From: a virus
Lineage: Duplodnaviria; Heunggongvirae; Uroviricota; Caudoviricetes
Length of the DNA stretch: 64,000 bases
Reading direction: 5' to 3' (one strand)
Virus record (IMG/VR): IMGVR_UViG_3300037421_000106
Position numbers and translations under genes: made by a program. Positions 26,826-43,489 of the stretch are shown one piece after another. Under the pieces are notes generated by a model, which did no database searches, was not told where the DNA came from, and saw only the letters and a program-made list of their open reading frames with translations. Every line of letters begins with the position of its first letter. Position 1 is the first letter of the stretch.

Positions 26826-27050
26826 TCAGACGACACGATTCAGACTCGGATTCAGCGTGGGGTCGAGCGACGCTTCAGCTTCGCCCGTCATCATCAGCAC
26901 GTGTTCGAGCTCGGATTTCTGGGACTGTTCGACGTTCTCTTCAGCGGCTTGCTGATAAAAATCCTGTACGAGCGAATCCCACGTGCGAGCGCCGTAGGCC
27001 GAGGTATACCCCTCGACCTTCGCCATTGCTTCGCGATCAAGCTTTTCCAT
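26826..27050 (-). CDS. Small hypothetical acidic protein
   Basis: 74-aa ORF between portal and Mu-F genes. Confidence 0.3.
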   Translation of the reverse strand: MEKLDREAMAKVEGYTSAYGARTWDSLVQDFYQQAAEENVEQSQKSELEHVLMMTGEAEASLDPTLNPSLNRVV

Positions 27051-29196
27051 ATGGCTTCCTAAGGTGACCGGTTCCGAGCCAGGTCTTGAACTCGTTCATC
27101 GACACGCGATGTACGGACATGATGCGGTCGACGCCCTGCAGATCACTGTAGCTGGACACGTAGGCCGCACACGCGCGTGCCTGCGATGAGAACCCGAGCA
27201 TGCACTTGTGCTCATCAAAAAATCCGGTGCGCAGATCCTTCTGGTTGATGATGTACACGGTGTCCGCGCCGCGATCGGGCCCGAGGAAGCAATCCATTCC
27301 TTCGTCCGGACCTTCGGCCGAACCCGTGCCAATTACATAACCATAATCGGCCGCAAGAATAGCGCGCCATGGATTTTGTGGATCCCTAGAAACGCGTTCG
27401 GTGCCGCGCTGATTCTCGATGTGCAGTTTCAAACCATGAAACTCACACGTCACGGGGCCGCGCGCAGCATCATCGAACGGCCGCGCACCAGGCATCACCC
27501 CACTCGGCATGACATCGGGCTCGGGCAAAACGTTCGGCGGGTAGCCAGGCTCGCTGTACGGAATAGCGTGTCTCTTGTTGGTCGCGCCCGCGGAACCTGT
27601 CCATGCGGCGTCGCGATTCTTTTGATTCGGAGCGGCTGGCTTTTTGCCGGCCGTCGGCCCTCCAGGAACGGGCGGCTCATCTTCCATGCCCGGCATGACG
27701 ATCCCCGCGGCCGGAACCGGCACGTCAGCGGCCGCTTCGATGTCCTCCTCCGTGATGTTTGTCCACACGCCAGTTTCGTGCGATTGCTGCTTGAGCTCCT
27801 GCATCGCGGTCTTCGTGGACACGGTGCCCTTTTCTTCGGCGGCCAGGACGGTCTCGGTGATGGTCTTGGCGATAGTGGCCTTTTCGAGCTCGGTCGGTTG
27901 CCACAGGGGCTTGAACGCGATGCTCATCTCTTCATTCCACTTGATCCCGAGCGATTGCGCCATCAGCTGATACACGATCGTCATCGGATACAGCAGATCG
28001 GCGATTTGGCGCGCCTTGATCATGTCGTAGTAGTTGCGCATGTCCGATTCACCCGTGGCGTTCATGCCGGCGGGTGACGTACCGAACAGTTTCGTCTGCG
28101 GCATCTGCAGGGCGCCCGACAATTGCTGCCGGAACTCTTGCAGAATCTCGGCCAGCCCCGCGAACGCGGCGTGCTCATGACCTTCGTATTCGTCTTCCAG
28201 GTCCATCAGGGTGACGCCCTCGATCCCCTGCTGCGAACGCATCACTTCGAGCAGCACGCGCACGCCTTCCATCGCGACATCATTCGACCCGACTAGCTCT
28301 TTCAGGCCCTTCAACTTGTACGTGCGAATGAAAGACTTGTCGATCAGCTGCGCGGCACCGCTCGATCCGATATCAAATGCATTGATTCGGTCCTGAATCG
28401 TTTCGAGCACGGACAGGCCCCAGAGATTCTCCTGGATCGCTTGCCAGTACGGAAGCTCGTTCCCGAGCAATCGGATCACGCGCGAATGATGAATCTTCAT
28501 GCGCGGCAGGGCCGGCGCATCCGCAGTCACGCGGTAGAACATCGGCTTGCCGAATTGCGGGGAGGCGAAGTCCGTGACCAGCAATTCCAGGCTCGGGTCG
28601 ACCATCCAACGATCGAGCGGAAAAATTCCCTTGAACTGGTCTTTGCCGACGGTCTCGATCCTCAGCGGCGTGGAGGGGTCCTGATTGGCGACGATGATGA
28701 ATCCGAGGCACCCGCCGTACAGGCGCGACCACTTAAGGACGGAGCGGACGTTTGTCCAAATATTAAGTTTCGTGGCCTCGGCATCCATCTTACGGATGTC
28801 TTTCGGCTTCATCGGGCCGTTAAGAATGACCCCTTGGCGAGTCATGTCTTCCGGAATCACGTCGATGGCATTCTTGCAGACGAACTGCCCGCGGTACATC
28901 CACTCGACCAGCGTGCGGATCCGGGTCAGCGGGTTGAAACTTGAACTGGAGCTTGAAAGGATGTTCTGCGCGCCGAGCCCGAGCCGGTGCGTGTAGTTGA
29001 CGAACGAGTCCTGGAATTTGCCGCCGGCCGTCGCTTTCGCCATCGGGGTAACGGCGTCCATGCCGATACTCTCACGAGCCTTGCTGTCGGCGACTCTCGC
29101 GGAGCGTGCTACCTGAGTGACACCCACTCGTTTTGGCGCGCCGGCACCGTTACGCTTCCCGCCCCATCCGTTCGCCATCTTGAAACCTCGATTCAA
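27037..29196 (-). CDS. Portal protein with Pro-rich linker and ~190-aa C-terminal extension domain
   Basis: 719 aa, upstream of Mu-F-like gene in canonical terminase-portal-MuF order; residues ~500-560 Pro-rich (PVPAAGIVMPGMEDEPPVPGGPTAGKKPAAPN...YPPNVLPEPDVMPSGVMPG) followed by a separate globular domain (CEFHGLKLHIENQRG...GMDCFLGPDRGADTVYIINQKD). Confidence 0.55.
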   Translation of the reverse strand: MNRGFKMANGWGGKRNGAGAPKRVGVTQVARSARVADSKARESIGMDAVTPMAKATAGGKFQDSFVNYTHRLGLGAQNILSSSSSSFNPLTRIRTLVEWMYRGQFVCKNAIDVIPEDMTRQGVILNGPMKPKDIRKMDAEATKLNIWTNVRSVLKWSRLYGGCLGFIIVANQDPSTPLRIETVGKDQFKGIFPLDRWMVDPSLELLVTDFASPQFGKPMFYRVTADAPALPRMKIHHSRVIRLLGNELPYWQAIQENLWGLSVLETIQDRINAFDIGSSGAAQLIDKSFIRTYKLKGLKELVGSNDVAMEGVRVLLEVMRSQQGIEGVTLMDLEDEYEGHEHAAFAGLAEILQEFRQQLSGALQMPQTKLFGTSPAGMNATGESDMRNYYDMIKARQIADLLYPMTIVYQLMAQSLGIKWNEEMSIAFKPLWQPTELEKATIAKTITETVLAAEEKGTVSTKTAMQELKQQSHETGVWTNITEEDIEAAADVPVPAAGIVMPGMEDEPPVPGGPTAGKKPAAPNQKNRDAAWTGSAGATNKRHAIPYSEPGYPPNVLPEPDVMPSGVMPGARPFDDAARGPVTCEFHGLKLHIENQRGTERVSRDPQNPWRAILAADYGYVIGTGSAEGPDEGMDCFLGPDRGADTVYIINQKDLRTGFFDEHKCMLGFSSQARACAAYVSSYSDLQGVDRIMSVHRVSMNEFKTWLGTGHLRKPYGKA

Positions 29197-29221
29197 ATTG
29201 AATCAAGATGGTATCACCGAA

Positions 29222-29458
29222 TCAAGGCATGCAGTGCTGGTCTAGATCTTCGAGGAAGGGTTTCATCAGCCGGGCGAATTTTTCACCATCAAATTCGCCG
29301 GAGGAGGTGCATTGTGTGAATGCTCCGAGAAGAATCTGGGCGCCACAGCTGAAGCCTGTTTTGTACCCTGCGCACGCCGCCTGCCGAGTGGCCAGGCTGG
29401 CATTTTCACATGCCGTCATGGAGAATTCGGCCAACGACCCCGTGAGCGTGCGAATCAT
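29222..29458 (-). CDS. Hypothetical protein
   Basis: 78-aa ORF, accessory island. Confidence 0.3.
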   Translation of the reverse strand: MIRTLTGSLAEFSMTACENASLATRQAACAGYKTGFSCGAQILLGAFTQCTSSGEFDGEKFARLMKPFLEDLDQHCMP

Positions 29459-29721
29459 TTCCGTCCCATATTTCGGACCTTCTTATCGAAGGCTTCAAGA
29501 GTTGGCGCCGGTTGCCGATGGATGCTGTCGGTATCGAGCTTGGCCGCCGGCCGGGTCAAAGTTACGGTCAGACGATCGCCGACGCGCGCCATGTCCACAA
29601 TGATTGTGCTGGCTTCGCCGAGGCCGCCCTGCATACGATACGTGCGGTTGTCCTCGGCGTCAAGCTGGACCGCCGAATCGAGAGACAGCGCCTCGATGCG
29701 GACCAGGCTCATGACGGTCAC
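29455..29721 (-). CDS. Hypothetical protein
   Basis: 88-aa ORF, translationally coupled. Confidence 0.3.
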   Translation of the reverse strand: MTVMSLVRIEALSLDSAVQLDAEDNRTYRMQGGLGEASTIIVDMARVGDRLTVTLTRPAAKLDTDSIHRQPAPTLEAFDKKVRNMGRK

Positions 29722-29915
29722 GCAAACTGACTGGTATTCACGGTCTGCGGATTAAACACCGCAGAAGCACCACCAAGGGCCAGCAACACGTTCGCGACCG
29801 CGTCGGCCGCATTGTCCGTGTTCAGCGTGACGACGACCTGGGTGATGGTCTGCGCGCCGCTGAGCGCGTTCGTGACGTTGACCGGAATGGTCATGGTATG
29901 GGAAGCGACGGGCAT
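29718..29915 (-). CDS. Hypothetical protein
   Basis: 65-aa ORF. Confidence 0.3.
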   Translation of the reverse strand: MPVASHTMTIPVNVTNALSGAQTITQVVVTLNTDNAADAVANVLLALGGASAVFNPQTVNTSQFA

Positions 29916-30023
29916 GTGATTCTCCTAAGGAATAGGTGGAGTAGCGTGATAACCCACGCCGGTCACCTTACAACTCCGGGCAACCTTTCGTTGGTACGCA
30001 CGGGCTCTGTCTGCCGGTCTATT

Positions 30024-30620
30024 CTACGCGATCCTGTGCGTCGGTTGGGGCAGACGTGAGCTTGCGCCCAGAACCGGCCTCTGATCGAATGCTTCGCCGG
30101 CATTGGGTGCCACAATGACGGTGGTACCCGGATCGGCCAACACCGGGGGCGCGATCTCGACTGTGCCACCACCCGCCCGCACAACCTCGCCAGTGCGCGG
30201 ATCGACAGCATGGGGAACGCCAGTCTCGCGTGTCAGGCGACCGGCTTCAACGTCGCCGGCCGGATTAAGCCAGGTGCCGATCTCGACCATTTCACCTTCG
30301 CCATTCTGCGCGAAGCGGCCAGTACCCTTGAAATGTTTCCCCGTAGTTGCCGGGATTTGCGTCACTTGCAAATCCTTCGATTGTAGGATCGGATCTCCGG
30401 CTAGCGCTGATGCCTTCTTAGTGGGGCGCGGCGCGCCGCCACCTGATTCTTTCTTCGAGCGTGGGGCCGTAACGAAATCAAGCGCGGCCTGCAGCTGTTC
30501 ACGCCATACATGGTCATGAGGCGACCCGGGCTCATTTTCGTAGACAAATGACTGCAGCGGATCCATCTGCCCTGTGCGAGCCAGTGCGTCGTTGCATTCA
30601 TCCCAGGTCGGCAGTATCAC
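30024..30620 (-). CDS. Hypothetical protein
   Basis: 198-aa ORF. Confidence 0.35.
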   Translation of the reverse strand: MILPTWDECNDALARTGQMDPLQSFVYENEPGSPHDHVWREQLQAALDFVTAPRSKKESGGGAPRPTKKASALAGDPILQSKDLQVTQIPATTGKHFKGTGRFAQNGEGEMVEIGTWLNPAGDVEAGRLTRETGVPHAVDPRTGEVVRAGGGTVEIAPPVLADPGTTVIVAPNAGEAFDQRPVLGASSRLPQPTHRIA

Positions 30621-31420
30621 TTCGTTCCTCCACGTCGAGCGGCATTCGCGGCCACGATGGTCGGAAGTGCCAAGTCCAGCATGTTTCGACGCTGCGCAGC
30701 CTTACGATCCTCGACTGCCTTGTGATCGCCAAACAGCAGTTGTTTGATTCGCTTCTGGTTGTCGCGCGCGCCGGGAATGTTACTGTCGGGCCGGGCCATG
30801 CGTTCCCAGATCGAACGCTTCGCCGGGTTGTCGACGGGCTCTGGACCTGGATCTGGCAGGTATGGTGCTCGTAGATACGCGATCAGCTCGGGCCTGAAAT
30901 TGTCGATTGCCATGCGGAGCTCGATTGGAATCTGCGATCGCTGCATATTCACGTAGTCGGCATCTGGAAAAGTCGCGGTATCGATCAGTGCGCTGATCTC
31001 TGGCGGTGCGCCAACCCACGGCAGAGGGTTGTCCTTAGGATTCCCGTTCGCCACATCCTTCGGATCAGGAACCATGCGGGTCACCCACGGGGTAATGACC
31101 TTGATCATACCCATTGGGTCCGGATGATCGAGCATGATGGTGATTCCCATCGCGGCCGCAGTACTGATGATCGTTTCGGCGATCGAGGGTTTGGCAGGCT
31201 CGGGAGGCGGTAGATCATCGATCGTGAGCTCTTGCCCACCCCCATCGCGCTCCTCGATGAACTCTATCAGATCCGCGCGACATTTTCGAATCTCTTGCAG
31301 CAGGTCTGCCGGAACCTTACGCTTCGGAGTAGCCGTGAGTTTTCCATCCGTGGGATTGATGCGCAGCTTGACACCGCGCTTTTCGCAGGCCTCTACGATC
31401 TCAGCGGGCTTCACGTTCAA
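30617..31420 (-). CDS. Protein with TubC_N-like N-terminal docking motif
   Basis: N-terminus AEIVEACEKRGVKLRINPTDGKLTATPKRKVPADLLQEIRKCRADLIEFI matches TubC_N pattern (L..GV.L...G.L....P.G.L...L...L..L...L). Confidence 0.35.
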   Translation of the reverse strand: MNVKPAEIVEACEKRGVKLRINPTDGKLTATPKRKVPADLLQEIRKCRADLIEFIEERDGGGQELTIDDLPPPEPAKPSIAETIISTAAAMGITIMLDHPDPMGMIKVITPWVTRMVPDPKDVANGNPKDNPLPWVGAPPEISALIDTATFPDADYVNMQRSQIPIELRMAIDNFRPELIAYLRAPYLPDPGPEPVDNPAKRSIWERMARPDSNIPGARDNQKRIKQLLFGDHKAVEDRKAAQRRNMLDLALPTIVAANAARRGGTK

Positions 31421-31815
31421 TCACCGTCGAAATCGCCGTCGGTATCAAGCACCGGCAGCGGAGGATATTGGACACCACGCACGGCGCCGATTATGGATTC
31501 ACGCGCATTGCTGATCAAAGCCTGCAGTTCGGCCGGCAGCGGCGTCGGAGTGTTGTCGGGTTGGAACGGCATCGTGACCGTCATCGTGGTGAAGTTGTTC
31601 GACAGAATGACATCGCCTCCGAGCGCCCGAATCCAGTCGAGCGCATACTGGCCTTTTGTCACTCGCAAACCTGGCGTACCTCCATTGAACATTCCGTCAG
31701 GGGCCCCATTGGGCTCGAACACGTTAGGCGGGTACGGCATATCAGGCTCCGTGCAAATCAGGCAGTTGAAACATGAACCGGAATTGCTCAGCATTGTCAG
31801 GATCACACTCACCAA
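31417..31815 (-). CDS. Hypothetical protein (C-terminus DTDGDFDGD)
   Basis: ORF with overlapping neighbours; start uncertain. Confidence 0.3.
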   Translation of the reverse strand: MVSVILTMLSNSGSCFNCLICTEPDMPYPPNVFEPNGAPDGMFNGGTPGLRVTKGQYALDWIRALGGDVILSNNFTTMTVTMPFQPDNTPTPLPAELQALISNARESIIGAVRGVQYPPLPVLDTDGDFDGD

Positions 31816-32137
31816 GGACCGCTTCTCGCACCATTCGCGGAGTCACTTCGTCATCCATGTCCCATAACGAATGAACGGTTTCGCGCACGCGAGACACGTC
31901 TTCTTTGTCTCGGACGTATGTAAACCAACGACCGTCTTCGAACATCTTCCGCAGACCTTCGTCCGCTTCGTCGACCGACCAACCCTGTATTTTCAGAGTC
32001 ATGAATCGTTCGGCGTCGGATGCATACGATACACATTCACCCGGCTGCAGGGTATGTGCGTGCGAGCCGCAGGACACTAAAACAAACATGCTACCGAGAA
32101 TCGATGCTGTCCAGAAGGCTCGCGTCAATACGACCAT
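31742..32137 (-). CDS. Putative lipoprotein
   Basis: MVVLTRAFWTASILGSMFVLVSC-GS signal peptide with lipobox (LVSC). Confidence 0.4.
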   Translation of the reverse strand: MVVLTRAFWTASILGSMFVLVSCGSHAHTLQPGECVSYASDAERFMTLKIQGWSVDEADEGLRKMFEDGRWFTYVRDKEDVSRVRETVHSLWDMDDEVTPRMVREAVLGECDPDNAEQFRFMFQLPDLHGA

Positions 32138-32138
32138 G

Positions 32139-32522
32139 TCAATCCTTATTCGGCACACCGTGCGATTGGCGCAACGACTCCATCAACCGCTCTTTGCAGT
32201 TGCTCTCCACTATATCATGGACCTGTTTCGCCGACAGCGTAAGATTACCGTAAATCCAATTCAGGGTATTGATTGCCTGCTGATCGTCGTCGTCGTCTTT
32301 GTAGATGCACGTCAGCCGATGAGCGGGATCGCGACAGATCTCCAGAGTCGCCGCCATCACACCGAGTTGCATCTTGAGGGACGCGTTCTTGACGTCGAAC
32401 GCTTCCTGCTTCGCGTCCCACGCGAACGCGTGGCATTCGGTTTCGTTCATCGTGTGGGCAACGGCGGCCCCGGCAACAGCATAGATCGCGAGCATGATCG
32501 AAAACGACAGGCTTCTCATCAC
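32139..32522 (-). CDS. Secreted protein (signal peptide)
   Basis: MMRSLSFSIMLAIYAVAGAAVA-HT signal peptide; Cys-containing, poly-Asp stretch. Confidence 0.4.
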   Translation of the reverse strand: MMRSLSFSIMLAIYAVAGAAVAHTMNETECHAFAWDAKQEAFDVKNASLKMQLGVMAATLEICRDPAHRLTCIYKDDDDDQQAINTLNWIYGNLTLSAKQVHDIVESNCKERLMESLRQSHGVPNKD

Positions 32523-33193
32523 AGGGTCCTTTCAAATGCGGCCACAGCCGCGGGAACGTATGGGCGAATCAGGTCGAGCATGGCTTCGGCGTAGACCCGT
32601 ATTTCAAACTGCGCATGCTCGTGCAAACGAAGCCTAAGGAAACCGAACAAGTTGTGCAGATCGACGGTCGCGAAGTGCTTGCTGTACGTGTTCAGTGGCA
32701 GCACGCCGCGCGCGAGCTCGCGGGGGCAACCGAGCGACAGGAGTTTTCTGTAGCTCCGGAACGATTCCACACACGCGCATCGGATCTCGTCCTGTATCTC
32801 AGCCGCATTCTCATTTACCTCGTCAGTCCGCATCTGCTTGTTGTGTTTCGACTGCGTCGTGATTTGGTCGAGCTCCGGCACGTAGAAACACTCTTCGAGC
32901 TCGCTGTAGCGTCCGGACTGCTCGTTGTACTTCCAGGTGCGGTGCCGATGCCACTGGCGGAAGTTGAAGATCGGAGCCTTCGCCTCGAAACAGAAGATCA
33001 CATGCTCGAATGGCGACGTGTGCTTGTTCTCCATCAGGTAAGCGATCAGCTTCTCGTCCGATCCGTCGTTGCGCGGCGCGGCGTTGTACGACACCCGGGC
33101 CGCGCGAACGATCATCTGGTCGTCGCCCATGTGGTCGACCAGGCGCACCATGCCGTGATCCAGCACGGCGCGCCAATTGAGGATAGGCTCGCT
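32519..33193 (-). CDS. thyX: Flavin-dependent thymidylate synthase ThyX
   Basis: ThyX signature RHRTWKYNEQSGRY (RHR-x7-S-x-RY) plus C-terminal ...RELARGVLPLNTYS; start taken at MSEPIL (upstream part of ORF is overlap). Confidence 0.75.
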   Translation of the reverse strand, partial: SEPILNWRAVLDHGMVRLVDHMGDDQMIVRAARVSYNAAPRNDGSDEKLIAYLMENKHTSPFEHVIFCFEAKAPIFNFRQWHRHRTWKYNEQSGRYSELEECFYVPELDQITTQSKHNKQMRTDEVNENAAEIQDEIRCACVESFRSYRKLLSLGCPRELARGVLPLNTYSKHFATVDLHNLFGFLRLRLHEHAQFEIRVYAEAMLDLIRPYVPAAVAAFERTL

Positions 33194-33633
33194 CATTTCG
33201 TCAGGTACGCCAGGGTCGACTCGATCGCGGCAACGTGCGCCGCGGGTACGAAGATCATCTTGCCGTCGGCCGGCGCCGGGCTCTGGCCAGGTTCGAAACC
33301 TGCGGCATCTCGCACCGCGGTCCAAAGTGCCGTGGCATCCACGGGGCGATCGGCGGTCCACACGGCCGCGTAGTAGAGTGCAGTCACGGCGGCGAGCAGT
33401 GCCCCACCGTCGTTCTCGTTGACATACTCGGTCAGCAGCACTATGGCGCGCGCCATGTACGACAGGTTCTCCGAATACAGACCTTCTCGATAGAATCCAT
33501 CGATCGACAGCCGCATCTTCTCGACTAGTTGCTCGACAGGCATCGCCACTATATGGGGAAACTCTTTCGGAGGCGCCGTTTCAATGGTCGCGACCAACTT
33601 GCTCTTCGGTGTCATGCTACCTCCATAGTGCAT
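33193..33633 (-). CDS. Hypothetical protein
   Basis: 146-aa ORF coupled to thyX. Confidence 0.35.
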   Translation of the reverse strand: MHYGGSMTPKSKLVATIETAPPKEFPHIVAMPVEQLVEKMRLSIDGFYREGLYSENLSYMARAIVLLTEYVNENDGGALLAAVTALYYAAVWTADRPVDATALWTAVRDAAGFEPGQSPAPADGKMIFVPAAHVAAIESTLAYLTK

Positions 33634-33932
33634 TGCAGGGGATGTCTGTGATTGCTTGCCGTGCCACGAACTTGGTAGACTCGAGTCTCGGCAATTTGAT
33701 GAGAATATACACCGGCCACGGCACGCCCTTCAGTATGAACCTTGAGCATGATATCGACCGCTTCGAAAGCGGTCTTGCCGAAGATCTGGATCAACAACTC
33801 AACCACGAACTCGGCCGGTGTGATGTCATCATTGATCAGAATCACAGCCCACAGTGGGGGCGGGGCTGGGGGTTGGATTTGACTGATCATACCCGGAACG
33901 ATTTCGCCGGGCACTGCGTAGGTGGCGCTCAT
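33612..33932 (-). CDS. clpS: ClpS-like ATP-dependent Clp protease adaptor
   Basis: WAVILINDDITPAEFVVELLIQIFGKTAFEAVDIMLKVHTEGRAVAGVYSHQIAETRVYQV...HPLQCTMEV aligns by eye with E. coli ClpS core ([24 protein letters not shown]...[25 protein letters not shown]...HPLLCTLE). Confidence 0.65.
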   Translation of the reverse strand: MSATYAVPGEIVPGMISQIQPPAPPPLWAVILINDDITPAEFVVELLIQIFGKTAFEAVDIMLKVHTEGRAVAGVYSHQIAETRVYQVRGTASNHRHPLQCTMEVA

Positions 33933-33933
33933 T

Positions 33934-34092
33934 TCATTCCCCACTGAGACGCGTATAGGCGCCCGCACGTTCGAGCTCTTCGATCTCTTCCTCGACTTCT
34001 TCGAGCGTCTCGCGATGACCGAGCCCAGTACGTAACGCCACGCTGACGCGAACCAGAATACCCCGCAGTCGGTTGCGATCCTCGGGAGTCAT
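33934..34092 (-). CDS. Small hypothetical protein
   Basis: short ORF, start at internal Met estimated. Confidence 0.2.
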   Translation of the reverse strand: MTPEDRNRLRGILVRVSVALRTGLGHRETLEEVEEEIEELERAGAYTRLSGE

Positions 34093-34298
34093 CGCGTCGT
34101 GTCCCGAGTGATCAACAGATCCGGGAAGTGACCCCATGGATGCACACTCATACCGAACGCGTAGTTACGGCATTGCTCCATGTCAATGAAATCTTTCGAA
34201 TGACTAACTTCCAGTCGTCCGTCGTACCAAACCTCCCGGCGACTGCTGGTACAGTTGTCGAACGTACCGGTTGGATGCTTCGGTTTCGTGGCCATCAC
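34089..34298 (-). CDS. Hypothetical protein
   Basis: 69-aa ORF. Confidence 0.3.
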   Translation of the reverse strand: MMATKPKHPTGTFDNCTSSRREVWYDGRLEVSHSKDFIDMEQCRNYAFGMSVHPWGHFPDLLITRDTTR

Positions 34299-34405
34299 TC
34301 AGTATCCTTCCAGTTGAATTCGCTCGGAGTCACTCGAACGAACATCCATGCAAGCAGGACGCCGAACATGACCAGTAATGATAGGAACACTTGATCGGGA
34401 GTCAT

Positions 34406-34603
34406 TCAGTCCTCCACGAATTGCCGGATCTCGGCGTCGAATTGGGTGTCGCGCTCGCGGGCGCCCAGGATGTGCTTGGCCTCTTCGAGAGACTTGAACT
34501 TGTCGCGCGTGCGACGGCCGGCGCGCTCGGGCGGGTTGAGCATGTTGCGGATGTTCCGCTCGACCGCTTCTTCGTACCGCTGCTGTCGGGTCTTAGCCAT
34601 CAC
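34406..34603 (-). CDS. Hypothetical protein
   Basis: 65-aa basic ORF. Confidence 0.3.
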   Translation of the reverse strand: MMAKTRQQRYEEAVERNIRNMLNPPERAGRRTRDKFKSLEEAKHILGARERDTQFDAEIRQFVED

Positions 34604-34959
34604 TTCCCCTTGGCGAGCCGACTGACACGGGCGCGTTCTTTCTTCGCCACCTTCAGCAGATCGCTCCAGACGTCCTGCTCGATGCGTATGCGCAACCGCT
34701 CGATGAAATTCATCGCATTGACGGCCTGCTCCATGACCATCACCGGGCGGGCGGGTTTGTTGCCGATGTCGAACCAGGCGAGCAGAACGTCGCGCAGGGC
34801 GTCGATCTCGCGGACATTCAGGCGGATGTTTCTGATTGCGGTCGCGGTGAGTCTGTTGCGGTCCGGCATGTATTGATACAGATCAGAATCGACCGACTTC
34901 ATAGGCGTTGCCTCCATCGAGTGAACAGTCATTATGGCAGTAAATGACGGTCGTGTCAA
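34600..34959 (-). CDS. Hypothetical protein
   Basis: 119-aa ORF. Confidence 0.3.
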   Translation of the reverse strand: MTRPSFTAIMTVHSMEATPMKSVDSDLYQYMPDRNRLTATAIRNIRLNVREIDALRDVLLAWFDIGNKPARPVMVMEQAVNAMNFIERLRIRIEQDVWSDLLKVAKKERARVSRLAKGK

Positions 34960-34967
34960 TAAATATC

Positions 34968-35099
34968 GTCGTCATTCTGATCAGCAATCTGCCGGATCAG
35001 ATCCAGGATCCAACAGCCGGCCGCCACGAGGGCTGCAGCGCACATTCCTGCAGTAACTGCTTGACAAACCGTCAGATCGTCGATCATCAGAATTTCCTC
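34968..35099 (-). CDS. Small membrane protein (43 aa), not in ORF track
   Basis: GAGGAA SD then MIDDLTVCQAVTAGMCAAALVAAGCWILDLIRQIADQNDDDIY*; one TM segment. Confidence 0.3.
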
Positions 35100-35236
35100 A
35101 AAACGAACATCAGATGATCGTACGCTTCGCGCGGAGTGGATCCTCTACGCGCAACCCATCCTAGCCGGCAATACCATACACCGCACTCGCGCCAAAGACG
35201 AGGCTTATGAGCCATTCGAATCACTCCGCGAAAAAA

Positions 35237-35833
35237 TTAAAACTCGGAACGAAGCGACAGGCTGAAAACGCCCCATCCCAATCCTTGGTACTGCGTCTGT
35301 ACCGAACCAACGTGGACATTCTCCGTGCGCAAGAGACGATAGTTGAAAATCAATTCCGCCACGGGAGTGCGATATCCGATCCCCGCCAGCGGTGACACAA
35401 GGGTTTGAGTGTTGTCCACTCGTAGACCCTGATGCGGCTTGACCGTCCCATCGGTCCAATCGGGGATATTCATCGCGAATCCCGAACGCGCGACGCCCAC
35501 CCCGATCTGCGCGAACGCCGGGCCCCAGTGAGGCTCGTACGCCGCCCAAATCCCATACGGATGCTCTACCCCGTACCAGTGGCTGTACGGAACACGCCCG
35601 TCACGACAGGCCGGCTCGTCTGCGCCACATGCGATCGCAGACGATGTCATCCTCCCCAGGCGCTCTGCCGACACGCTCCAGTTTGAGCCGACCAGCGTGA
35701 CACCATATGCCACACCTTCGTTGCGAAACGAATGAGGCTTCTCGGCTTGGTACCACGTACCATTCGGAGGATTCGTTTCGTAGGAGCCGCCGAGCAGCAG
35801 CTGCAGACATGCGGTAAACAGGCAATTCGTCAT
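35237..35833 (-). CDS. Outer-membrane beta-barrel protein (moron-like)
   Basis: Signal peptide MTNCLFTACLQLLLGG; aromatic-rich alternating pattern; C-terminal ...LSLRSEF ending in Phe (OMP C-terminal signature). Confidence 0.45.
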   Translation of the reverse strand: MTNCLFTACLQLLLGGSYETNPPNGTWYQAEKPHSFRNEGVAYGVTLVGSNWSVSAERLGRMTSSAIACGADEPACRDGRVPYSHWYGVEHPYGIWAAYEPHWGPAFAQIGVGVARSGFAMNIPDWTDGTVKPHQGLRVDNTQTLVSPLAGIGYRTPVAELIFNYRLLRTENVHVGSVQTQYQGLGWGVFSLSLRSEF

Positions 35834-36018
35834 TGCGTGGACTCCCTAATTGCTTGACGGGCCAGGTCGAGAATCTCGCCCGGAGTTATAGTTGGGCCGC
35901 CGAACGGACAGCGCGCGTGGCGTGCCTTGATCCATTCGAGATGCTTCCGGTCGAGTGCAGCGAGAAGCACAACGGCTTGCGCAGGACTGAGTGTCGGAAC
36001 CCCAACGGTGTTGAACAT
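35830..36018 (-). CDS. Hypothetical protein
   Basis: 62-aa ORF. Confidence 0.3.
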   Translation of the reverse strand: MFNTVGVPTLSPAQAVVLLAALDRKHLEWIKARHARCPFGGPTITPGEILDLARQAIRESTQ

Positions 36019-36033
36019 GTCGTTACCCCCGAT

Positions 36034-36190
36034 TCATACGTGAACCCACAGAATGACTGCGCAGAGTACTGCAACAAGCGCGTAGTCGAACGCCGCGCCG
36101 TGATGAGCGTATTTCCCGTACGAGAATTCCATGAGGGCGCGCAGAGTATAAATTGCGCATGTGAAGTAAAGCAGCCAGTGCACCTTCATC
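36034..36190 (-). CDS. Small membrane protein (52 aa), not in ORF track
   Basis: MKVHWLLYFTCAIYTLRALMEFSYGKYAHHGAAFDYALVAVLCAVILWVHV*; two hydrophobic segments. Confidence 0.3.
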
Positions 36191-36436
36191 TCCGGTTGCG
36201 GATCCAATGCAAGTGATGATGCTGGTCAAGTGATTCGGCGCGGCGCGACCGCCTGCATTGGCCTATGAACGGTGTGCCCGGCAAAGCCAGGTATTCCACC
36301 GAAAGTTCGGCACGTCGGGCGGGTCACAGGTAATTAGCGCCTCGCCGCTTCGACTCGCAACCGGCGGCGCCGCCGGCCCTATCACTTGAACAGCATCATC
36401 GAGAGCGAGACTGTAGCACATGATCCGATCTGATGC

Positions 36437-36466
36437 AAGAAAAAAATAGGCCCCGAAGGGCCTATT
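36437..36466 (-). terminator. Rho-independent terminator (minus strand)
   Basis: AATAGGCCC-CGAA-GGGCCTATT hairpin followed on minus strand by TTTTTTTCTT, immediately after stop of 36470-37333. Confidence 0.7.
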
Positions 36467-36469
36467 AGG

Positions 36470-37333
36470 CTATCGCCTAACTGCGTCATCTCCACCACCG
36501 CCCCCGCCGCCACTCGGCGGAGAGACGTAATGCTGCTGCAGACCATTCCCCCAAATCGGAATGTAGGAGAAGAACGTAGCATTGTCGAGGATGCCGCAAT
36601 TGAATCCACCGCATCCCGAACCCGTGAACGTCACCAGATACGTTCCCGGCTGCAACACGTTCCCCGTGCTTTGGTTCAGGACCCATTCGTCGCACTGCAC
36701 CCAGGTGTTGCAGGCGTAGGTGGCGTGATTGAATTGCGCCACCGTCCCATCGCCCAAAAGAGCCGGCTGACCCGTCGAGACCCATTGCTGCAACATGCAA
36801 GGGGATCCGCCGCAGAAGCCCTGCCCCATCACCGGAACCGTGTTTCCGTTGGCATCAGTCGTAGTCTCCGGCACCGCCTGAACGATCGAGACTAGAGGCG
36901 CGCCATTAACGTCTGTTGCCGGCATGTATGTCAGATACGTCGGCGGAGGACATCCGCGCCCTGAACACACGCCTCGCCCTTCCTGACCGTACAACGTCCA
37001 CGGCATGTTGGTGATGACCCATCCGCCGCCAGCTGCCGTAGCTGCCGCGTCTGACGTGTAATAGCCGGAGAAACTGGCCTGGATAGCACCGGAGAAATCT
37101 TCAGTCACCAGAGGGTTGCCAGTGCCGCCAATGCGGAAAGTGGTCTGCGTGTATGTGCCGTTGACCAGTGCCCCTTGATAGATAGTCTCACGTCCGCTGT
37201 TACCCGCGGTGCTGATCTGCGGCGGAAACGGATTGGGGGTAGGACCCGCGCATGGCGCAGCGTGAGTGCACGTCTGCGCGAGCGCAAACGTCGAAAACAG
37301 CAATGCGAAACATCCTGCAATGAATTGCTTCAT
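36470..37333 (-). CDS. Secreted Cys-rich protein with poly-Gly C-terminus
   Basis: MKQFIAGCFALLFSTFALA-QTC signal peptide; many Cys; ends SGGGGGGGDDAVRR; own terminator. Confidence 0.45.
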   Translation of the reverse strand: MKQFIAGCFALLFSTFALAQTCTHAAPCAGPTPNPFPPQISTAGNSGRETIYQGALVNGTYTQTTFRIGGTGNPLVTEDFSGAIQASFSGYYTSDAAATAAGGGWVITNMPWTLYGQEGRGVCSGRGCPPPTYLTYMPATDVNGAPLVSIVQAVPETTTDANGNTVPVMGQGFCGGSPCMLQQWVSTGQPALLGDGTVAQFNHATYACNTWVQCDEWVLNQSTGNVLQPGTYLVTFTGSGCGGFNCGILDNATFFSYIPIWGNGLQQHYVSPPSGGGGGGGDDAVRR

Positions 37334-37438
37334 TTTCCCGCTTCCTTTATTCAACATCCCGAGAACCGCTCGGTACGGTGGTTCGATAGCCTGATCTTAC
37401 CCGAAATCAAAGTCAACTCATCCGATCGGTTGAGGGTG

Positions 37439-37464
37439 AAAAAAATCCCCGCATATGCGGGGAT
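37439..37464 (-). terminator. Rho-independent terminator (minus strand)
   Basis: ATCCCCGCA-TA-TGCGGGGAT hairpin followed on minus strand by TTTTTTTCACC. Confidence 0.65.
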
Positions 37465-37603
37465 TGTCAGTTGGTTGTCACCACGACTGTAACTGAGATC
37501 GGTATCGTGGCGTAAATGCGACGGTGTCTCCGTCTTTCTCGCCATCTCCGCCACTTGGGTGAGTACCGCCAGTTAAGCTCGCGGACTAGCCCAAGGACCG
37601 AGC

Positions 37604-37915
37604 TCACGACAACGTGACTGTCACGGACAGCGGAATCGTCGCCGTCACATTCGGCACCGTAAACGGCAGCGAGACCACCGCGGGGGCGGCCGGGCGGGCC
37701 GTTTGCGCGTCAATCCGTTCCGCCGAGATCGTGTAGGTGCCAGGGGCAACGTTGTTGAACGTGACCGACACTTGCGTGCCCGTGCCCGTGGTGTCTTGCC
37801 CACTTTGCGTGGACACGATCGCGCCGGTGCTGTCCAGCAGATTGAAGTTGACCGGCCCTACCAGACCCACGTTAACCGGGCTGCCGAGGCTGGCGACTGC
37901 GTTTGCATTCATCAT
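37604..37915 (-). CDS. Hypothetical protein (possible Ig-like fold)
   Basis: About 103 aa from MMNANAVASLG; T/S/V-rich beta-strand character. Confidence 0.3.
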   Translation of the reverse strand: MMNANAVASLGSPVNVGLVGPVNFNLLDSTGAIVSTQSGQDTTGTGTQVSVTFNNVAPGTYTISAERIDAQTARPAAPAVVSLPFTVPNVTATIPLSVTVTLS

Positions 37916-37987
37916 GGTGATTCCTTTCGAAGAAGTGAATCGAGAGTATGCCACGCTGCAGTGCAGCGTGGGGACCCTCTGATTCGA

Positions 37988-38155
37988 TTACAGCTTTTTC
38001 ACTGCTGATTGAGCAGCTGCCACATCGGCCTTGATCTTTTGAGCGATCATCGGATGCTTCGCCTGCACGAACACGCCAACCACGACAGCGGCTGCGTGAG
38101 TGCTGATCAGCAATGCGTTGGTAGCCAGAAATGCGTACACGGAACTGAACATGGG
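37988..38155 (-). CDS. Small membrane protein (55 aa), not in ORF track
   Basis: GGAG SD then MFSSVYAFLATNALLISTHAAAVVVGVFVQAKHPMIAQKIKADVAAAQSAVKKL*. Confidence 0.35.
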   Translation of the reverse strand, partial: PMFSSVYAFLATNALLISTHAAAVVVGVFVQAKHPMIAQKIKADVAAAQSAVKKL

Positions 38156-38334
38156 ATTCTCCCAAAAGAATGAGCCTGCGATGGTACTCCGAATTTGACT
38201 GTTGCGCGGATGCCACTTTCGCGTGTCAACTGTCTGGAAGTATCGACCCTGTATCCCGCCAGCAAGTGATATATGGTTACCAGTAGGTCTTTGGCTGATT
38301 GGCGGAACAGGACACCATAGTTCTAGACAGTCGA

Positions 38335-39981: not shown

Positions 39982-40253
39982 CAGAGGACCCAGACCAGCA
40001 CCGTCAGCGCGAATCCGATGCAGTAACCGCCGAAGTCGATCCACCCTGATTGAATTGACGCACCTTCTTCATGCAAGTCGAACCAGAACTCCTTCCACGC
40101 TGTGAACGCCACCGCGGCCGCGAGCCCGTACCAGCGCAGGCCGGGCAGCCAATGCGACCACAGCGCCAGCACCGTGAAGATCATGAACGCGTGCAGCTCC
40201 AACGACGTCGTGACGGGCGACAACATGTATTTCTTGAACCAATTCACGAACAT
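39981..40253 (-). CDS. Small integral membrane protein
   Basis: 90 aa with 3 hydrophobic segments between TerS and TerL. Confidence 0.4.
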   Translation of the reverse strand: MFVNWFKKYMLSPVTTSLELHAFMIFTVLALWSHWLPGLRWYGLAAAVAFTAWKEFWFDLHEEGASIQSGWIDFGGYCIGFALTVLVWVL

Positions 40254-40422: not shown

Positions 40423-41106
40423 TTAACTCCTAAGGATTGGATCGTCCGCCAGTCTAATTGGGGACGTAGTAGACGAGACCGAAACGGGCCTGCCCGTAAC
40501 GACCGTGGCGTCAGTGGCCCGCGCATTCATCGTCCGCAGCCACAGGGAGGCTGCGTGGTCGATCTGAGCCTGGGTCATCCCGGCCGCCGGATCAACCGGC
40601 GTGTCGACCTTCACGCGCGTGGGCGCGTCGATGCCCAGGAGCATGGCGCGTCGATGCCACAGCTTCAGCAGCAGGCCTATGGCTTCGTTCTGAGGCCCCT
40701 CGTCGACCATCTCCTCCAGGACCGGCTGTAGCTGCCCCGTGTTCACGTTGCGCTCCAACAGCACCTGGCCATCAGCGCCCTTCACCGGGATCATGACGAC
40801 CTGGCCGGCGTTCACCTTGATGTACTTGCGCTGCGTCTTCTTGAACAGCTGTGCCTCGACTTTGTCGTATTTCTCCAACTCCATCTCGCGAAACTCCTCG
40901 GCGGCCTGCGAGGGGTTGTCCTGCATGTAGCGCCTGATCATCTTGCTGCAGCCCGAGACGCTAAGCCCCAGCTGATCTGCGCATTCCTTAAGGGTAAGCC
41001 CCTTCAGGCGCAATTCCAGCACTTGCTTCGTTCGCTCGTTGCGCTCGATGGCCGCTACGGTAGTCTTCCCGTGAGAAGGAGCGTGTGGTGTGTGCGATGT
41101 TGACAT
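40423..41106 (-). CDS. Terminase small subunit (HTH-containing)
   Basis: 227 aa; N-terminal HTH-like LKGLTLKECADQLGLSVSGCSKMIRR; first gene of late operon, immediately upstream of membrane protein and TerL. Confidence 0.5.
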   Translation of the reverse strand: MSTSHTPHAPSHGKTTVAAIERNERTKQVLELRLKGLTLKECADQLGLSVSGCSKMIRRYMQDNPSQAAEEFREMELEKYDKVEAQLFKKTQRKYIKVNAGQVVMIPVKGADGQVLLERNVNTGQLQPVLEEMVDEGPQNEAIGLLLKLWHRRAMLLGIDAPTRVKVDTPVDPAAGMTQAQIDHAASLWLRTMNARATDATVVTGRPVSVSSTTSPIRLADDPILRS

Positions 41107-43467: not shown

Positions 43468-43489
43468 CCCTCACTTGGAGACACACAAT

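Follow-up and report, generated by a model that had tools for sequence, protein, structure and literature searches.

In phage lambda, the W gene is located between the genes for the large terminase subunit (TerL) and the portal protein. The late operons of lambdoid phages contain internal terminators that are read through by antitermination. In cultured relatives of the phage described here, among them Burkholderia phage Magia, Salmonella phage SEN34, and Bups phi1, the genes for TerL and portal are adjacent or no more than 850 bp apart. In this report, we describe a 64,000-nucleotide stretch of DNA (the window) from an uncultured soil myovirus in which these two genes are separated by 9,138 bp (29197–38334), in agreement with the gap of about 9 kb claimed in an earlier note on this DNA. 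We consider it likely that this interval is a layered plasticity region, built stepwise at the junction of two independently exchanged modules for packaging (TerS-TerL) and for the head.

All of the genes and elements described below are on the minus strand. The upstream boundary is TerL (38335–40044; Terminase_6C, E = 2.5e-5; phrog_38, E = 9e-56), whose true start is probably the ATG at 39981, which abuts the stop codon of an ORF for a 90-aa membrane protein. The downstream boundary is the portal protein, which carries an InPase domain at its C-terminus (27037–29196; Phage_portal_3, E = 3.6e-92; phrog_146, E = 2e-115; InPase, E = 1.7e-28), and the earlier portal assignment was thus correct. 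The same portal-InPase fusion is found in L044, L047, and L049, three of the metagenomic relatives designated here by L numbers. The interval contains 23 small ORFs, slightly fewer than the approximately 25 genes first counted. Relative to two genomes that are 95–99% identical, 13 of the ORFs have an excess of substitutions at the third codon position, and the overlapping plus-strand ORFs were rejected by the same comparison. For the remaining 10 ORFs the substitutions are too few for this comparison; among these, g116, g43, g67, g127, g138, and g78 are backed by protein-level homologs in diverged relatives. No functional assignment was obtained for 19 of the 23 genes. The signal peptides, lipobox, and transmembrane segments given below were predicted using sequence heuristics.

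The interval was compared with those of about 15 metagenomic relatives. The distance between TerL and portal is 0–0.85 kb where the portal proteins are 37–49% identical, about 1 kb at 52%, 2.2 and 6.1 kb at 61–62%, about 8.4 and 10.3 kb at 80%, and 9.1 kb at 95% or more. At two more distant loci (portal 29–32%) it is 1.0 and 1.9 kb. Since TerL and portal adjoin or are separated by no more than 850 bp in the cultured relatives and in those with 37–49% identical portals, the interval is a lineage-specific expansion. The TerL proteins of L001 and L002 are 96–99% identical to that of the window. At the same portal identity of 80%, L044 has a TerL with 45% identity and L048 one with 72%. In L008 the Terminase_6C protein is replaced by a TerL of the Terminase_3 family, and the identity tracts among near-identical genomes are mosaic. 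The divergence of TerL is decoupled from that of portal, and the site between them is therefore best viewed as a module junction.

The portal-proximal 5.7 kb (29222–34959) contains 15 genes, from g119 via ClpS and ThyX to g78, that keep the same order in at least five lineages with 76–80% identical portals (L044–46, L047–49, L055, L056, and L057). The first gene of this block, g119 (34600–34902), encodes about 100 aa from MKSVDSD and has a homolog in L048 (blastp, 40% identity, E = 1e-17); the shorter start is backed by an indel upstream of M20 in L004. It is followed by the small conserved proteins g65a (34406–34603), g69 (34089–34298), and g67 (33934–34137), whose homologs are 46–76% identical and keep their order in L044 and L048. 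The substitutions at codon positions 1/2/3 are 1/0/9 for g65a and 0/0/5 for g69. The next gene (33612–33968, with a probable start at the ATG at 33932) encodes a homolog of ClpS, the N-degron adaptor of ClpAP (Pfam ClpS, E = 1e-29; E = 2e-23 to 6e-20 against the ClpS structures from C. crescentus and E. coli in the PDB). The NDD, TP, and H residues of the pocket are invariant among the relatives, and the gatekeeper is A, G, or M. The conserved protein g146 (33193–33633; substitutions 10/6/43) has homologs in L048 (57%) and L044 (31%), and its stop codon overlaps the start of ThyX (ATGA). The flavin-dependent thymidylate synthase ThyX (32519–33196, 225 aa from the ATG at 33196) was identified from the RHRX7S motif and profile matches to Thy1 (E = 5e-52) and phrog_85 (E = 3e-67), and it is found at the equivalent position in L044, L048, L055, and L057.

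The remaining genes of the block lead to portal. The distant tandem paralogs g127 and g138 (31742–32522) cross-match by tblastn and are predicted to be exported, g127 with a signal peptide (AVA|H) and g138 (start ATG at 32137) with a lipobox (LVS-C). They are kept in L044, L047–49, and L055–57, and in L057 there are three 127-aa copies in tandem. The protein g132 (31417–31740, about 107 aa from MPYPPN; substitutions 2/0/10) is 51–73% identical in closer relatives and has homologs directly after TerL in L007 (53%) and L041 (47%). The adjacent TubC_N-domain protein (30617–31420, 267 aa) matches TubC_N with E = 2.3e-6 (28 bits, with a cutoff of 26), and its profile matches the docking domains of the NRPS Kj12 (E about 1e-3). 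An N-terminal docking-like domain (alpha-beta-beta-alpha-alpha) is accompanied by a second alpha-beta-beta unit, and the C-terminus is helical. The AF2 model (pLDDT 69, pTM 0.34) gave no significant viral fold match; there are 11 homologs, and the substitutions are 4/4/68. Both g132 and the TubC_N protein are kept in every relative with a portal identity of at least 61% and enough upstream sequence, and they appear to be the oldest residents of the gap. The portal-proximal genes g198b (30024–30620), g65b (29718–29915), and g88 (29455–29721) are conserved and have the third-position excess; g78 (29222–29458) is conserved as well. This region is colinear in L005, L006, L044, L047, L049, L055, and L056, except that L055 is without g88 and L044 is without g78. 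Only 25 nt separate the g78 stop codon from the portal gene.

The TerL-proximal 3.4 kb (34960–38334) is of a different character. The first gene, g54 (37988–38152; substitutions 2/0/10 against near-identical relatives), encodes a 54-aa protein with one transmembrane segment predicted from hydropathy (residues 7–32) and has no homolog in L044 or L048. The protein g116 (37604–37915, about 103 aa from an internal ATG) is beta-sandwich-like and lacks a signal peptide; its weak matches to GBD_IRG7_N and PPC are both below the Pfam cutoffs. A homolog is found in L044 (2989–3300, phmmer E = 7e-13) and none in L048. The stand-alone cassette g295 (36470–37333, 287 aa from MKQF; substitutions 4/3/17) encodes a protein with 11 Cys and a predicted Sec signal peptide, MKQFIAGCFALLFSTFALA|Q, with cleavage at ALA|Q. 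Only five cluster representatives were found among 1.84 billion proteins, and a 55% identical homolog adjoins ERF/NinB in the unrelated phage L050. Next is g57 (36034–36189, about 51 aa), a small protein with a predicted transmembrane segment and homologs in L048 (4389–4535) and L044 (5429–5572). The ORF g62 (35830–36018, 62 aa) shows 100% conservation among near-identical relatives, and neither L044 nor L048 has it; its stop codon overlaps the start of g198_35237 (35237–35833), a predicted eight-stranded outer-membrane beta-barrel with a C-terminal Phe. The model of this barrel is of moderate confidence only, and its signal peptide is atypical in lacking a basic n-region. The basic 45-aa ORF g45 (35087–35224) is present only in near-identical relatives, where there are no substitutions from which to judge coding. 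The last gene, g43 (34956–35087, 43 aa), has a predicted transmembrane segment and an acidic tail; it is 61% identical to a 38-aa ORF of L048, and L044 has a 42-aa ORF of the same position and design with no significant sequence match.

Only g116, g57, and g43 have counterparts in the variable parts of L044 and L048. Between TerL and the long hairpin described below (slot A), L044 has ORFs of 145, 138, 103, 216, 184, and 152 aa and L048 has ORFs of 186, 174, and 156 aa; of the nine, seven carry signal peptides of the form MK[KR]-h-region-AxA, and the majority are rich in Cys. In slot B, the stretch from the g57-like to the g43-like gene, L048 has nothing, L044 has ORFs of 197 and 64 aa, and the window has g62, the barrel, and g45. 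Since the content differs between relatives, parts have their own terminators, and g295 recurs in an unrelated phage, these comparisons support the TerL-proximal 3.4 kb behaving as a cargo hotspot. In composition this part cannot be told apart from the remainder of the genome and thus differs from the compositional anomaly that is the classical moron signature; this would fit an exchange confined to phages of similar composition. The earlier note had recognized an accessory-gene hotspot, and this holds for the TerL-proximal part but not for the conserved 15-gene block. The gene-level assignments made there were confirmed: ThyX, ClpS, and the TubC_N-like protein by profile matches; the signal-peptide, lipoprotein, and secreted Cys-rich proteins (g127, g138, and g295) by the heuristics given above, which also predict three small membrane proteins (g54, g57, and g43). 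The barrel ending in Phe is likewise predicted, from its fold.

Two strong intrinsic terminators reported at 37439–37464 and 36437–36466 are present on the gene strand. T1 (37437–37465), downstream of g116, consists of AATCCCCGCATATGCGGGGATT followed by TTTTTT, with a 9-bp stem that includes six GC pairs (stem and T run, 37465–37444). T2 (36438–36466), 4 nt past the g295 stop codon, consists of AATAGGCCCTTCGGGGCCTATT followed by TTTTT, also with a 9-bp stem (stem and T run, 36466–36445). These are two of the three strong intrinsic terminators on the minus strand of the window; the third, at 19941, follows the gene for the major head protein. A predicted sigma70-type promoter with an extended −10 element (34931–34959; TTGACA-17-TGcCATAAT) precedes the conserved block and is followed by a conserved leader and ribosome binding site. 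It matches the consensus at 11 of 12 positions in addition to the TG and ranks first among the sigma70 matches across the window. At the DNA level, L044 (6465–6493) and L048 (4723–4751) share this promoter, the leader TCAYTCGATGGAGG, and ATGAAGTCG, and the block is otherwise 27–80% identical at the protein level in these three lineages. In total, the region has no more promoter-like or terminator-like sites than expected from shuffling, and only these individual sites stand out; the promoter and terminator activities are predicted at the level of consensus.

It was previously suggested that the entire interval is a single inserted island. If a genomic island or moron cluster of 9 kb had been gained recently in one piece, this would account for the close spacing of TerL and portal in distant and cultured relatives, the many orphan genes, and the two internal terminators, but this reading is largely refuted by the comparative series. 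The 15 colinear genes, the subset of g132, the TubC_N protein, g198b, g78, and g88 that persists down to 52–62% portal identity, and the intermediate gaps of 2.2 and 6.1 kb all argue against one insertion, and the interval has no anomaly in GC content or tetranucleotide usage and no integrase, tRNA, or flanking direct repeat. We regard a single island as very improbable. A chimeric contig, with the TerL region of one genome fused to the portal region of another, could be suspected from the metagenomic source and the mosaic identity to relatives. However, the 9.1-kb arrangement recurs in no fewer than three independently made assemblies (IMG/VR 3300037852 and 3300021479; Ga0210403), and several metagenomes are represented; other samples yielded diverged versions in Logan, NCBI, and JGI assemblies, and an assembly artefact is therefore hardly credible.

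The portal-proximal genes, being conserved like portal, could be assembly factors, and most of the interval, or at least g132 to g78, may then belong to the morphogenesis module in the manner of lambda gpW between A and B. In favor of this are the identities of g65b and g88 among relatives (59–82%, compared with 76–81% for portal), the tight packing with stop/start overlaps that continues into portal with no intervening terminator, and the retention of g132 and the TubC_N protein noted above. However, neither these genes nor 56 orthologs and neighbors match a structural or assembly family in PHROG, Pfam, or the PDB. Relatives with 37–49% identical portals and the same portal and MuF families and TerL type are without them, g88 and g78 are each dispensed with in one relative, and the interleaved ThyX, ClpS, signal-peptide, and lipoprotein genes cannot be capsid assembly factors. 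This alternative is thus rather unlikely. The earlier note had allowed that conserved core morphogenesis genes in related phages would count against an island; since the block genes are conserved in relatives, this point is touched, but nothing marks them as morphogenesis genes. Another arrangement, unlikely but to be taken seriously, is one long late transcript from about 41.4 kb that covers the whole interval. A phage antiterminator would then override T1 and T2, which would act as attenuators; the promoter at 34959 would be fortuitous or minor, and the genes would be strictly late ones. The genes all share the strand of the structural genes with none opposing, promoter-like sites occur at 41394–41366 and 41161–41132, and lambdoid phages provide the precedent. 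However, the −35, extended −10, leader, and ribosome binding site (34959–34890) are conserved as DNA where neighboring genes have diverged or been replaced, which argues for function. No antiterminator homolog was found in a non-exhaustive search, and ThyX is normally required before late times. The position within the late operon, as first claimed, holds, but T1, T2, and the conserved promoter argue for separate transcription units.

In the layered reading that we favor, the block would be a lineage-fixed accessory layer, with g132 and the TubC_N protein, then g198b, g78, and g88, as its oldest members. The ClpS and ThyX genes, the g127/g138 pair, and several small genes would have been added before the radiation of the clade with 76–80% identical portals. 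The block runs without an intrinsic terminator into the genes for portal, MuF, protease, and the major head protein. We infer that host RNA polymerase can start at the 34959–34931 promoter, and the block would therefore be expressed independently of TerS-TerL. ThyX would supply dTMP, and the ClpS homolog would retune N-degron proteolysis by host ClpAP. The second layer would be a cargo hotspot that is still active and has two slots or more: slot A, with terminator-bounded cassettes for a small membrane protein and for exported proteins of the Cys-rich or beta-sandwich type, and slot B, anchored by the conserved g57 on the left and g43 on the right. Cargo would be swapped between relatives by recombination at conserved flanks and exchanged with unrelated phages by horizontal transfer. 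The exported cargo may remodel the host envelope, for example in superinfection exclusion or receptor masking, as an analogy with lambda Lom/Bor, HK97 gp15, and Cor suggests; the timing of expression and every cargo function are put forward as predictions. Expression from a prophage cannot be claimed, because neither an integrase nor a repressor was found in the window. About a third of the interval would thus be a swap-prone slot for predicted exported cargo, and the rest a block that related phages share. As an example of phage genomes gathering extra genes the interval is clear, though not without precedent, and it belongs to a known kind of plasticity or moron region.

Additional elements lie between the cargo genes. 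A perfect 10-bp palindrome without a T run, CCACGCTGCA c TGCAGCGTGG, was read from the sequence past g54 (37951–37971), and L044 has analogous hairpins with T runs and promoter-like sites between its cassettes. Between T2 and g57 is a conserved non-coding hairpin of about 186 nt (36215–36400), closed by 25-nt inverted arms, with an inverted repeat that is 88% complementary (MFE −107 kcal/mol, z = −4.5) and no match in Rfam. A homologous hairpin is found upstream of the g57-like gene of L048, with nine compensatory pairs, six of which are in the outer stem.

The genes for the large terminase subunit (TerL; 38335-40044, minus strand; Terminase_6C; phrog_38, E = 9e-56) and the portal protein (27037-29196, minus strand; Phage_portal_3, E = 3.6e-92, with an InPase domain at the C-terminus) were found to be separated by 9,138 bp (29197-38334). 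The large multi-gene interval claimed in the earlier note is thus confirmed, and its count of about 25 genes is adjusted to 23 minus-strand ORFs. The minus strand carries every gene from approximately 3.5 to 41.4 kb of the window. This arm is the myovirus structural module, with the baseplate wedge (7822-9018), tail sheath (14623-16179), major head protein (19997-21085), and head protease (21733-23343) all encoded on the minus strand and a Mu F-like gene following the portal. The plus-strand arm beyond 41.5 kb encodes a helicase and a D5/NrS-1-type primase-polymerase. The genome is about 72 kb in size, of which the window covers 64 kb and the other 8 kb lie outside. The ORFs scanned in the 64-kb window, many of them orphans, yielded neither an integrase nor a repressor, and a megablast search of a 13-kb region against 50,697 phage records returned zero matches.

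Adjacency of TerL and portal is common and not obligatory. The W gene of lambda, located between A and B, and genes 18 and 19 of T4, located between 17 and 20, show that this junction tolerates genes. Those intervening genes are structural or function in assembly and number one or two, whereas the 23 genes described here have no detectable structural signature and include metabolic, proteolysis-adaptor, and exported proteins. The Pfam, PHROGs, and PADLOC scans of all interval ORFs matched only ThyX, ClpS, TubC_N, and weak PPC-like entries, and the use of Pfam on 56 orthologs and neighbors added nothing further; 19 of the 23 products have no known function. By simple sequence rules, signal peptides are predicted for g295 and g127, a lipobox for g138, and transmembrane segments for g54, g57, and g43, in agreement with the exported and membrane proteins listed in the earlier note.

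The coding status of the interval was determined by counting substitutions at each codon position between the window and two IMG/VR genomes that are 95-99% identical to it. An excess at the third position was found in 13 ORFs, with counts at positions 1/2/3 of 4/4/68 for TubCN (the TubC_N-domain gene), 5/6/61 for g198b, 10/6/43 for g146, and 2/0/10 for g54. The remaining 10 of the 23 ORFs have too few substitutions for this test. For six of these (g116, g43, g67, g127, g138, and g78), homologous proteins are encoded by diverged relatives, and similar homologs back the weak substitution signal of g57. The support for g62, g45, and the outer-membrane barrel gene is their ORF structure, and the barrel gene has two homologs elsewhere (53% identical). 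Competing high-GC3 ORFs on the plus strand (for example, 34391-34876 and 35833-36216) were rejected because their substitution pattern is opposite to that of genes. The candidates g52_36263 and g68_36023 were ruled out by the codon-position test and by frame-breaking indels relative to L048, a diverged metagenomic relative.

Relatives were collected by searches anchored on the portal and TerL in IMG/VR, GTDB genomes, and JGI metagenomes, and from contigs encoding homologs of either the TubC_N protein or g295. In cultured relatives the annotated TerL and portal genes overlap; these matches (tblastn) are less than 45% identical and serve as a baseline for adjacency only. The uncultured relatives form one graded series at a module junction, with gaps from 0 to approximately 10 kb. 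The gap ranges from an overlap to 0.85 kb in relatives with portals 37-49% identical to that of the window (L010, L011, L013, L014, L017, L028, L029, L031, L032, L036, and L037) and is 1.0 and 1.9 kb in L021 and L018 (29-32%). It is about 1 kb in L008 (52%), 2.2 kb in L007 (61%), 6.1 kb in L041 (62%), 10.3 kb in L044 (80%), approximately 8.4 kb in the L048 and L047 composite (80%), and 9.1 kb in L003 and L004 (at least 95%). From this series of gaps, and from the overlap in cultured relatives, the interval is a lineage-specific expansion that has grown stepwise. In the synteny comparison proposed in the earlier note, TerL and portal are adjacent or nearly so in the distant relatives, and 15 of the genes are colinear in the closer ones.

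These 15 genes occupy the portal-proximal part of the interval (29222-34959), and a distance of 25 nt separates the g78 stop from the portal start. L044-46 and L047-49 are colinear with the window in the order g119/g65a-g69-g67-ClpS-g146-ThyX-g127-g138-g132-TubCN-g198b-g65b-g88-g78-portal, and L055, L056, and L057 are colinear over the part from ThyX to the portal. The protein identities within the block range from 27% to 82%, and g65b and g88 are conserved to roughly the same degree as the portal. Earlier stages of the series contain parts of the block: in L007, TerL is followed directly by g132 and TubCN, and in L041 the gap contains g132, TubCN, g198b, and g78, with ClpS and ThyX absent. 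L041 also carries, upstream of its portal (8374-9637), a DXD-motif glycosyltransferase (Gly_transf_sug, E = 1.3e-8) and a SAM methyltransferase-like protein (matches at or below the Pfam cutoffs). This cargo reveals one more variable slot, at the end of the gap that adjoins the portal. Within the block, g127 and g138 (31742-32522), which encode the signal-peptide protein and the lipoprotein, are distant tandem paralogs. Relatives differ in the copy number of these paralogs, and L057 (333-1481) has three 127-aa copies in a row.

The block begins at a predicted σ70-type extended -10 promoter (TTGACA-17-TGcCATAAT, 34959-34931) that is the best match in the window. DNA-level conservation in L044 and L048 extends over the promoter, its leader TCAYTCGATGGAGG, and the first codons ATGAAGTCG, and the genes upstream of the promoter differ in both. 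A scan of the window found no strong terminator between this promoter and the site after the major head gene, where the only minus-strand terminator of the whole window comparable to the two in the interval is located.

Two proteins named in the earlier note, ThyX and ClpS (33612-33968), are encoded within the block; both are of the kind regarded as auxiliary or host-takeover genes in phages. ThyX (PF02511) matches Thy1 with E = 5e-52 over 190 of 191 model positions and contains RHRTWKYNEQS (the RHRX7S motif); its true start is the ATG at 33196, which overlaps the g146 stop. ThyX is frequent in phages (1,711 of 50,697 records). ClpS (PF02617) matches its Pfam model with E = 1e-29 over 79 of 80 positions and PDB entries for ClpS with E = 2e-23, and it is annotated in only 19 of the 50,697 records, including PA5oct, Atu_ph07, and Phosso. 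Most of these are jumbo phages of 280-490 kb, whereas here the genome is about 72 kb and ClpS is located within the structural arm. We found nothing specific in the literature on phage ClpS. In an alignment with E. coli ClpS (N34, D35, D36, T38, and H66), the NDD, TP, and H residues of the N-degron pocket are invariant. The gatekeeper at the position of E. coli M40 is alanine in the window and in L048, glycine in the 92%-identical copy of L002, and methionine in L044. The change M40A/M53A relaxes the specificity of ClpS, and therefore the phage may retune the substrate choice of ClpAP. The best PDB match, 3g1b/3g3p, has alanine at the gatekeeper, and the second-best C. crescentus entry, 3dnj, which we take to be the wild-type protein, scores slightly lower.

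The TubC_N (PF18563) match is barely over the cutoff (28.0 versus 26 bits, E = 2.3e-6). TubC_N is the N-terminal αββαα dimerization domain of NRPS/PKS subunits, and the AF2 model of the phage protein has this order of elements over residues 5-59. Its profile matched only NRPS docking domains in the PDB (Kj12 NDDs, E of about 1e-3), and a Foldseek search of the model against BFVD gave no significant match. Since an NRPS context is absent, we treat this match as a resemblance in fold only.

The remaining part of the interval (34960-38334) is variable and contains at least two cargo slots. Slot A is directly downstream of TerL and in the window consists of g54 (37988-38152, transmembrane), a palindrome, g116 (37604-37915, β-sandwich-like), the terminator T1 (37437-37465), g295 (36470-37333, a predicted Sec signal peptide and 11 Cys by simple sequence rules), and the terminator T2 (36438-36466). 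In L044 the slot holds six ORFs of 145, 138, 103, 216, 184, and 152 aa, and in L048 three of 186, 174, and 156 aa. Classical MK[KR]-h-region-AxA signal peptides were found in seven of these nine, and most have 3-10 Cys. Two families are common to L044 and L048; the window shares one slot A family only, that of g116, and only with L044. A "GxYxxTFxG" motif linking g295 to secreted family C of L044 and L048 was dropped because it is not significant by phmmer. A stretch directly downstream of the TerL stop (CTGTTCCGCCAA..GCCAAAGA, approximately 38290-38315) is kept in L048 (approximately 2400-2425) despite the different cargo genes that follow, and may serve to anchor recombination at slot A.

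The g295 family has five cluster representatives among 1.84 billion proteins. A homolog that is 55% identical was found in L050, an unrelated phage recovered by the same sampling project, where it follows ERF and NinB and adjoins another secreted Cys-rich protein. This is direct evidence that cargo of the g295 type is exchanged horizontally. The neighboring Cys-rich protein of L050 is 282 aa in length and is encoded directly upstream of the g295 homolog; the same contig (1-14009) also encodes a lysozyme, a pectate-lyase-type tail protein, a C1q-domain protein, and a GARS (PurD-like) enzyme.

Slot B is located between two conserved small membrane genes, g57 (36034-36189) and g43 (34956-35087). 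It is empty in L048, holds ORFs of 197 and 64 aa in L044, and in the window contains g62 (35830-36018), the barrel gene g198_35237 (35237-35833), and g45 (35087-35224). From a model of only moderate confidence, the product of g198_35237 is predicted to be an 8-stranded outer-membrane β-barrel with a C-terminal aromatic residue, like the small barrels OmpW, OmpA-TM, NspA, and Ail/Lom. Its N-terminus, MTNCLFTACLQLLLGG|S, is hydrophobic and has no basic n-region, and there is no Pfam match to Ail_Lom, OmpW, or OMP_b-brl. For these reasons the protein is treated as fold-like and not as a member of a family.

Both putative terminators named in the earlier note are real sites on the coding strand, each with a 9-bp stem and a T run; T1 follows g116 and T2 follows g295, and their only common feature is the AAT...ATT framing of the stem. 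Upstream of g116 and g295, the sequence offers no convincing σ70 promoter. L044 has sites with a hairpin and a T run, as well as promoter-like sites, between its own cassettes. Between T2 and g57 there is a non-coding hairpin of approximately 186 nt (36215-36400, minus strand) that is closed by 25-nt inverted arms (MFE -107 kcal/mol, z = -4.5). A homologous element lies upstream of the g57-like gene in L048 (approximately 4185-4375). Between the two there are nine compensatory base-pair changes, six of them within the 20-bp outer stem, and frame-breaking indels exclude a coding sequence. No Rfam family matches the hairpin, and when IMG/VR was scanned for the exact pattern of its core, the two near-identical genomes were the only ones to contain it. 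The hairpin may serve as a cis-regulatory leader or as a processing site, or it may be what remains of a MITE-like element.

Why the interval has grown at this site is suggested by the behavior of its flanks. The portals of L044 and L048 are both 80% identical to that of the window, and the TerL proteins are 45% and 72% identical. In L008 the TerL (1202-2572) is of the Terminase_3/3C family rather than the Terminase_6C of the window, and thus the packaging ATPase gene is replaced as a whole beside a homologous portal. The near-identical genomes (27037-40044 versus L001/L003 and L004; 95-99%) are mosaics that switch between fully identical tracts (100%) and tracts of 77-93% identity; the segment 29854-30148, for example, matches one relative at 76.7% identity and the other at 100%. 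These tracts indicate frequent homologous recombination within the population. Because the divergence of TerL is decoupled from that of the portal, TerL has been swapped in L008, and the close genomes are mosaics, the TerL-portal boundary is a recombination joint between modules, where insertions interrupt nothing essential.

A site-specific island or mobile element would be an alternative, and the interval does not have the features of one. There is no integrase or transposase match in the interval by Pfam or PHROGs, no tRNA in the window, no Rfam family in the interval, and no flanking repeat beyond a 29-nt match that is 79% complementary. The longest direct repeats within 29000-38500 are 14-30 nt, which is chance-like, and no cassette is repeated. 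The GC content (0.575-0.580) is close to that of the window (0.572), and the tetranucleotide deviation (z from -1.4 to +0.3) gave a negative test for a compositional island. We infer accretion through recombination, either illegitimate or at short homologies, between phages alike in composition, and site-specific insertion is disfavored. We found nothing specific in the literature on TerL-portal insertions.

For slots A and B, the nearest concept is the moron, an extra gene that separates two genes found side by side in related phages (PMC3594210). [quoted passage not shown] Like morons, g54, g295, g62, g198_35237, and g45 are extra genes within a structural-gene arm that are missing from the same positions in L044 and L048. 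The g116 and g295 cassettes have their own terminators, T1 and T2, the products are predicted to be exported or in membranes, and spread is horizontal, with g295 common to an unrelated phage. The predicted barrel resembles Lom, and the small membrane proteins resemble gp15. The GC content, in contrast to that of typical morons, is that of the neighboring genes, and two-thirds of the interval is a conserved block; unlike Lom, the OMP-like protein falls outside Pfam Ail/Lom. A clear promoter was not found for the g116 and g295 cassettes. The 15-gene block does not consist of extra genes in this sense, as it is conserved. The moron or auxiliary-gene hotspot proposed in the earlier note thus holds for about one-third of the interval, the cargo slots, and fails for the two-thirds that is conserved in the lineage behind a conserved promoter.

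A similar situation is found in the hyperplastic regions of T4-type phages, in which PeSL cassettes (a σ70 promoter and a stem-loop) flank variable ORFs (PMC2839356). [quoted passage not shown] However, no single repeated cassette accounts for the promoter, terminators, and hairpin of this locus, the phage does not belong to the T4-like group, and the location (the TerL-portal junction) is different. We class the locus as a moron-type or plasticity region of a phage from an uncharacterized clade, at an uncommon position. Its layering is unusually clear, and nothing here contradicts current understanding.

In the expression scheme that we propose, a transcript from the divergent region near 41.4 kb would include TerS, a 90-aa membrane ORF, TerL, g54, and g116 and end at T1. 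The gene for g295 would be a separate cassette ending at T2, and the group from g57 to g43 would be preceded by the conserved structured leader. The promoter at 34959 would start the unit of the 15-gene block and could read into the portal and head genes. ThyX would supply dTMP, and ClpS with an alanine gatekeeper would retune the choice of ClpAP substrates. The exported cargo (barrel, Cys-rich protein, lipoprotein pair, and small membrane proteins) would most plausibly alter the cell envelope, with superinfection exclusion and receptor masking as the obvious candidate outcomes by analogy with Lom, Bor, Cor, and HK97 gp15 (PMC3594210). The exported orphan proteins and the phage outer-membrane barrel are accordingly named as candidate factors for superinfection exclusion or envelope remodeling. 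A more elaborate reading, which we regard as improbable, would join the hairpin (36215-36400), the promoter and leader (34959-34890), g57, and g43 into a dedicated scaffold on either side of the cargo slots. These elements would anchor the recombination that exchanges cassettes and would also act as a cis-regulatory RNA over an array of fast-evolving exported proteins, a previously undescribed class of periplasmic or outer-membrane effectors in soil myoviruses; alongside, the variable gatekeeper of ClpS could retarget host N-degron proteolysis.

The stepwise expansion at the TerL-portal locus pictures the growth of a phage accessory region with unusually good resolution: old additions are fixed behind a conserved promoter and the newest slot is still turning over. 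For annotation pipelines, a large TerL-portal gap is no error, yet it is not necessarily a recent island. Besides the exported proteins and the barrel, testable parts are the covarying 186-nt hairpin, which has no Rfam family, and ClpS, a rare case in a small phage, with a specificity residue that varies in nature.

The genes flanking the interval gave some further observations. The InPase domain of the portal (PF18823, E = 1.7e-28) spans residues 584-707, and the same fusion was also called in L044, L047, and L049 and seen in the MAG match L036; in PHROGs this domain is otherwise found within large minor-head or DarB-like proteins. The 90-aa ORF (39981-40253, minus strand) lies between a putative small terminase of the HTH/sigma70_r4 type (40423-41106) and TerL, abuts the probable TerL start codon, and is 98% conserved in L001. 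One transmembrane segment is predicted in its hydrophobic C-terminal segment (residues 71-90), and a membrane protein within a terminase operon is out of the ordinary. On the plus strand, the most deviant tetranucleotide usage of the window is found at 42500-45500, a region that includes an ORF (43700-44704) for a 334-aa protein with YdcK β-solenoid repeats and a bactofilin-like match.
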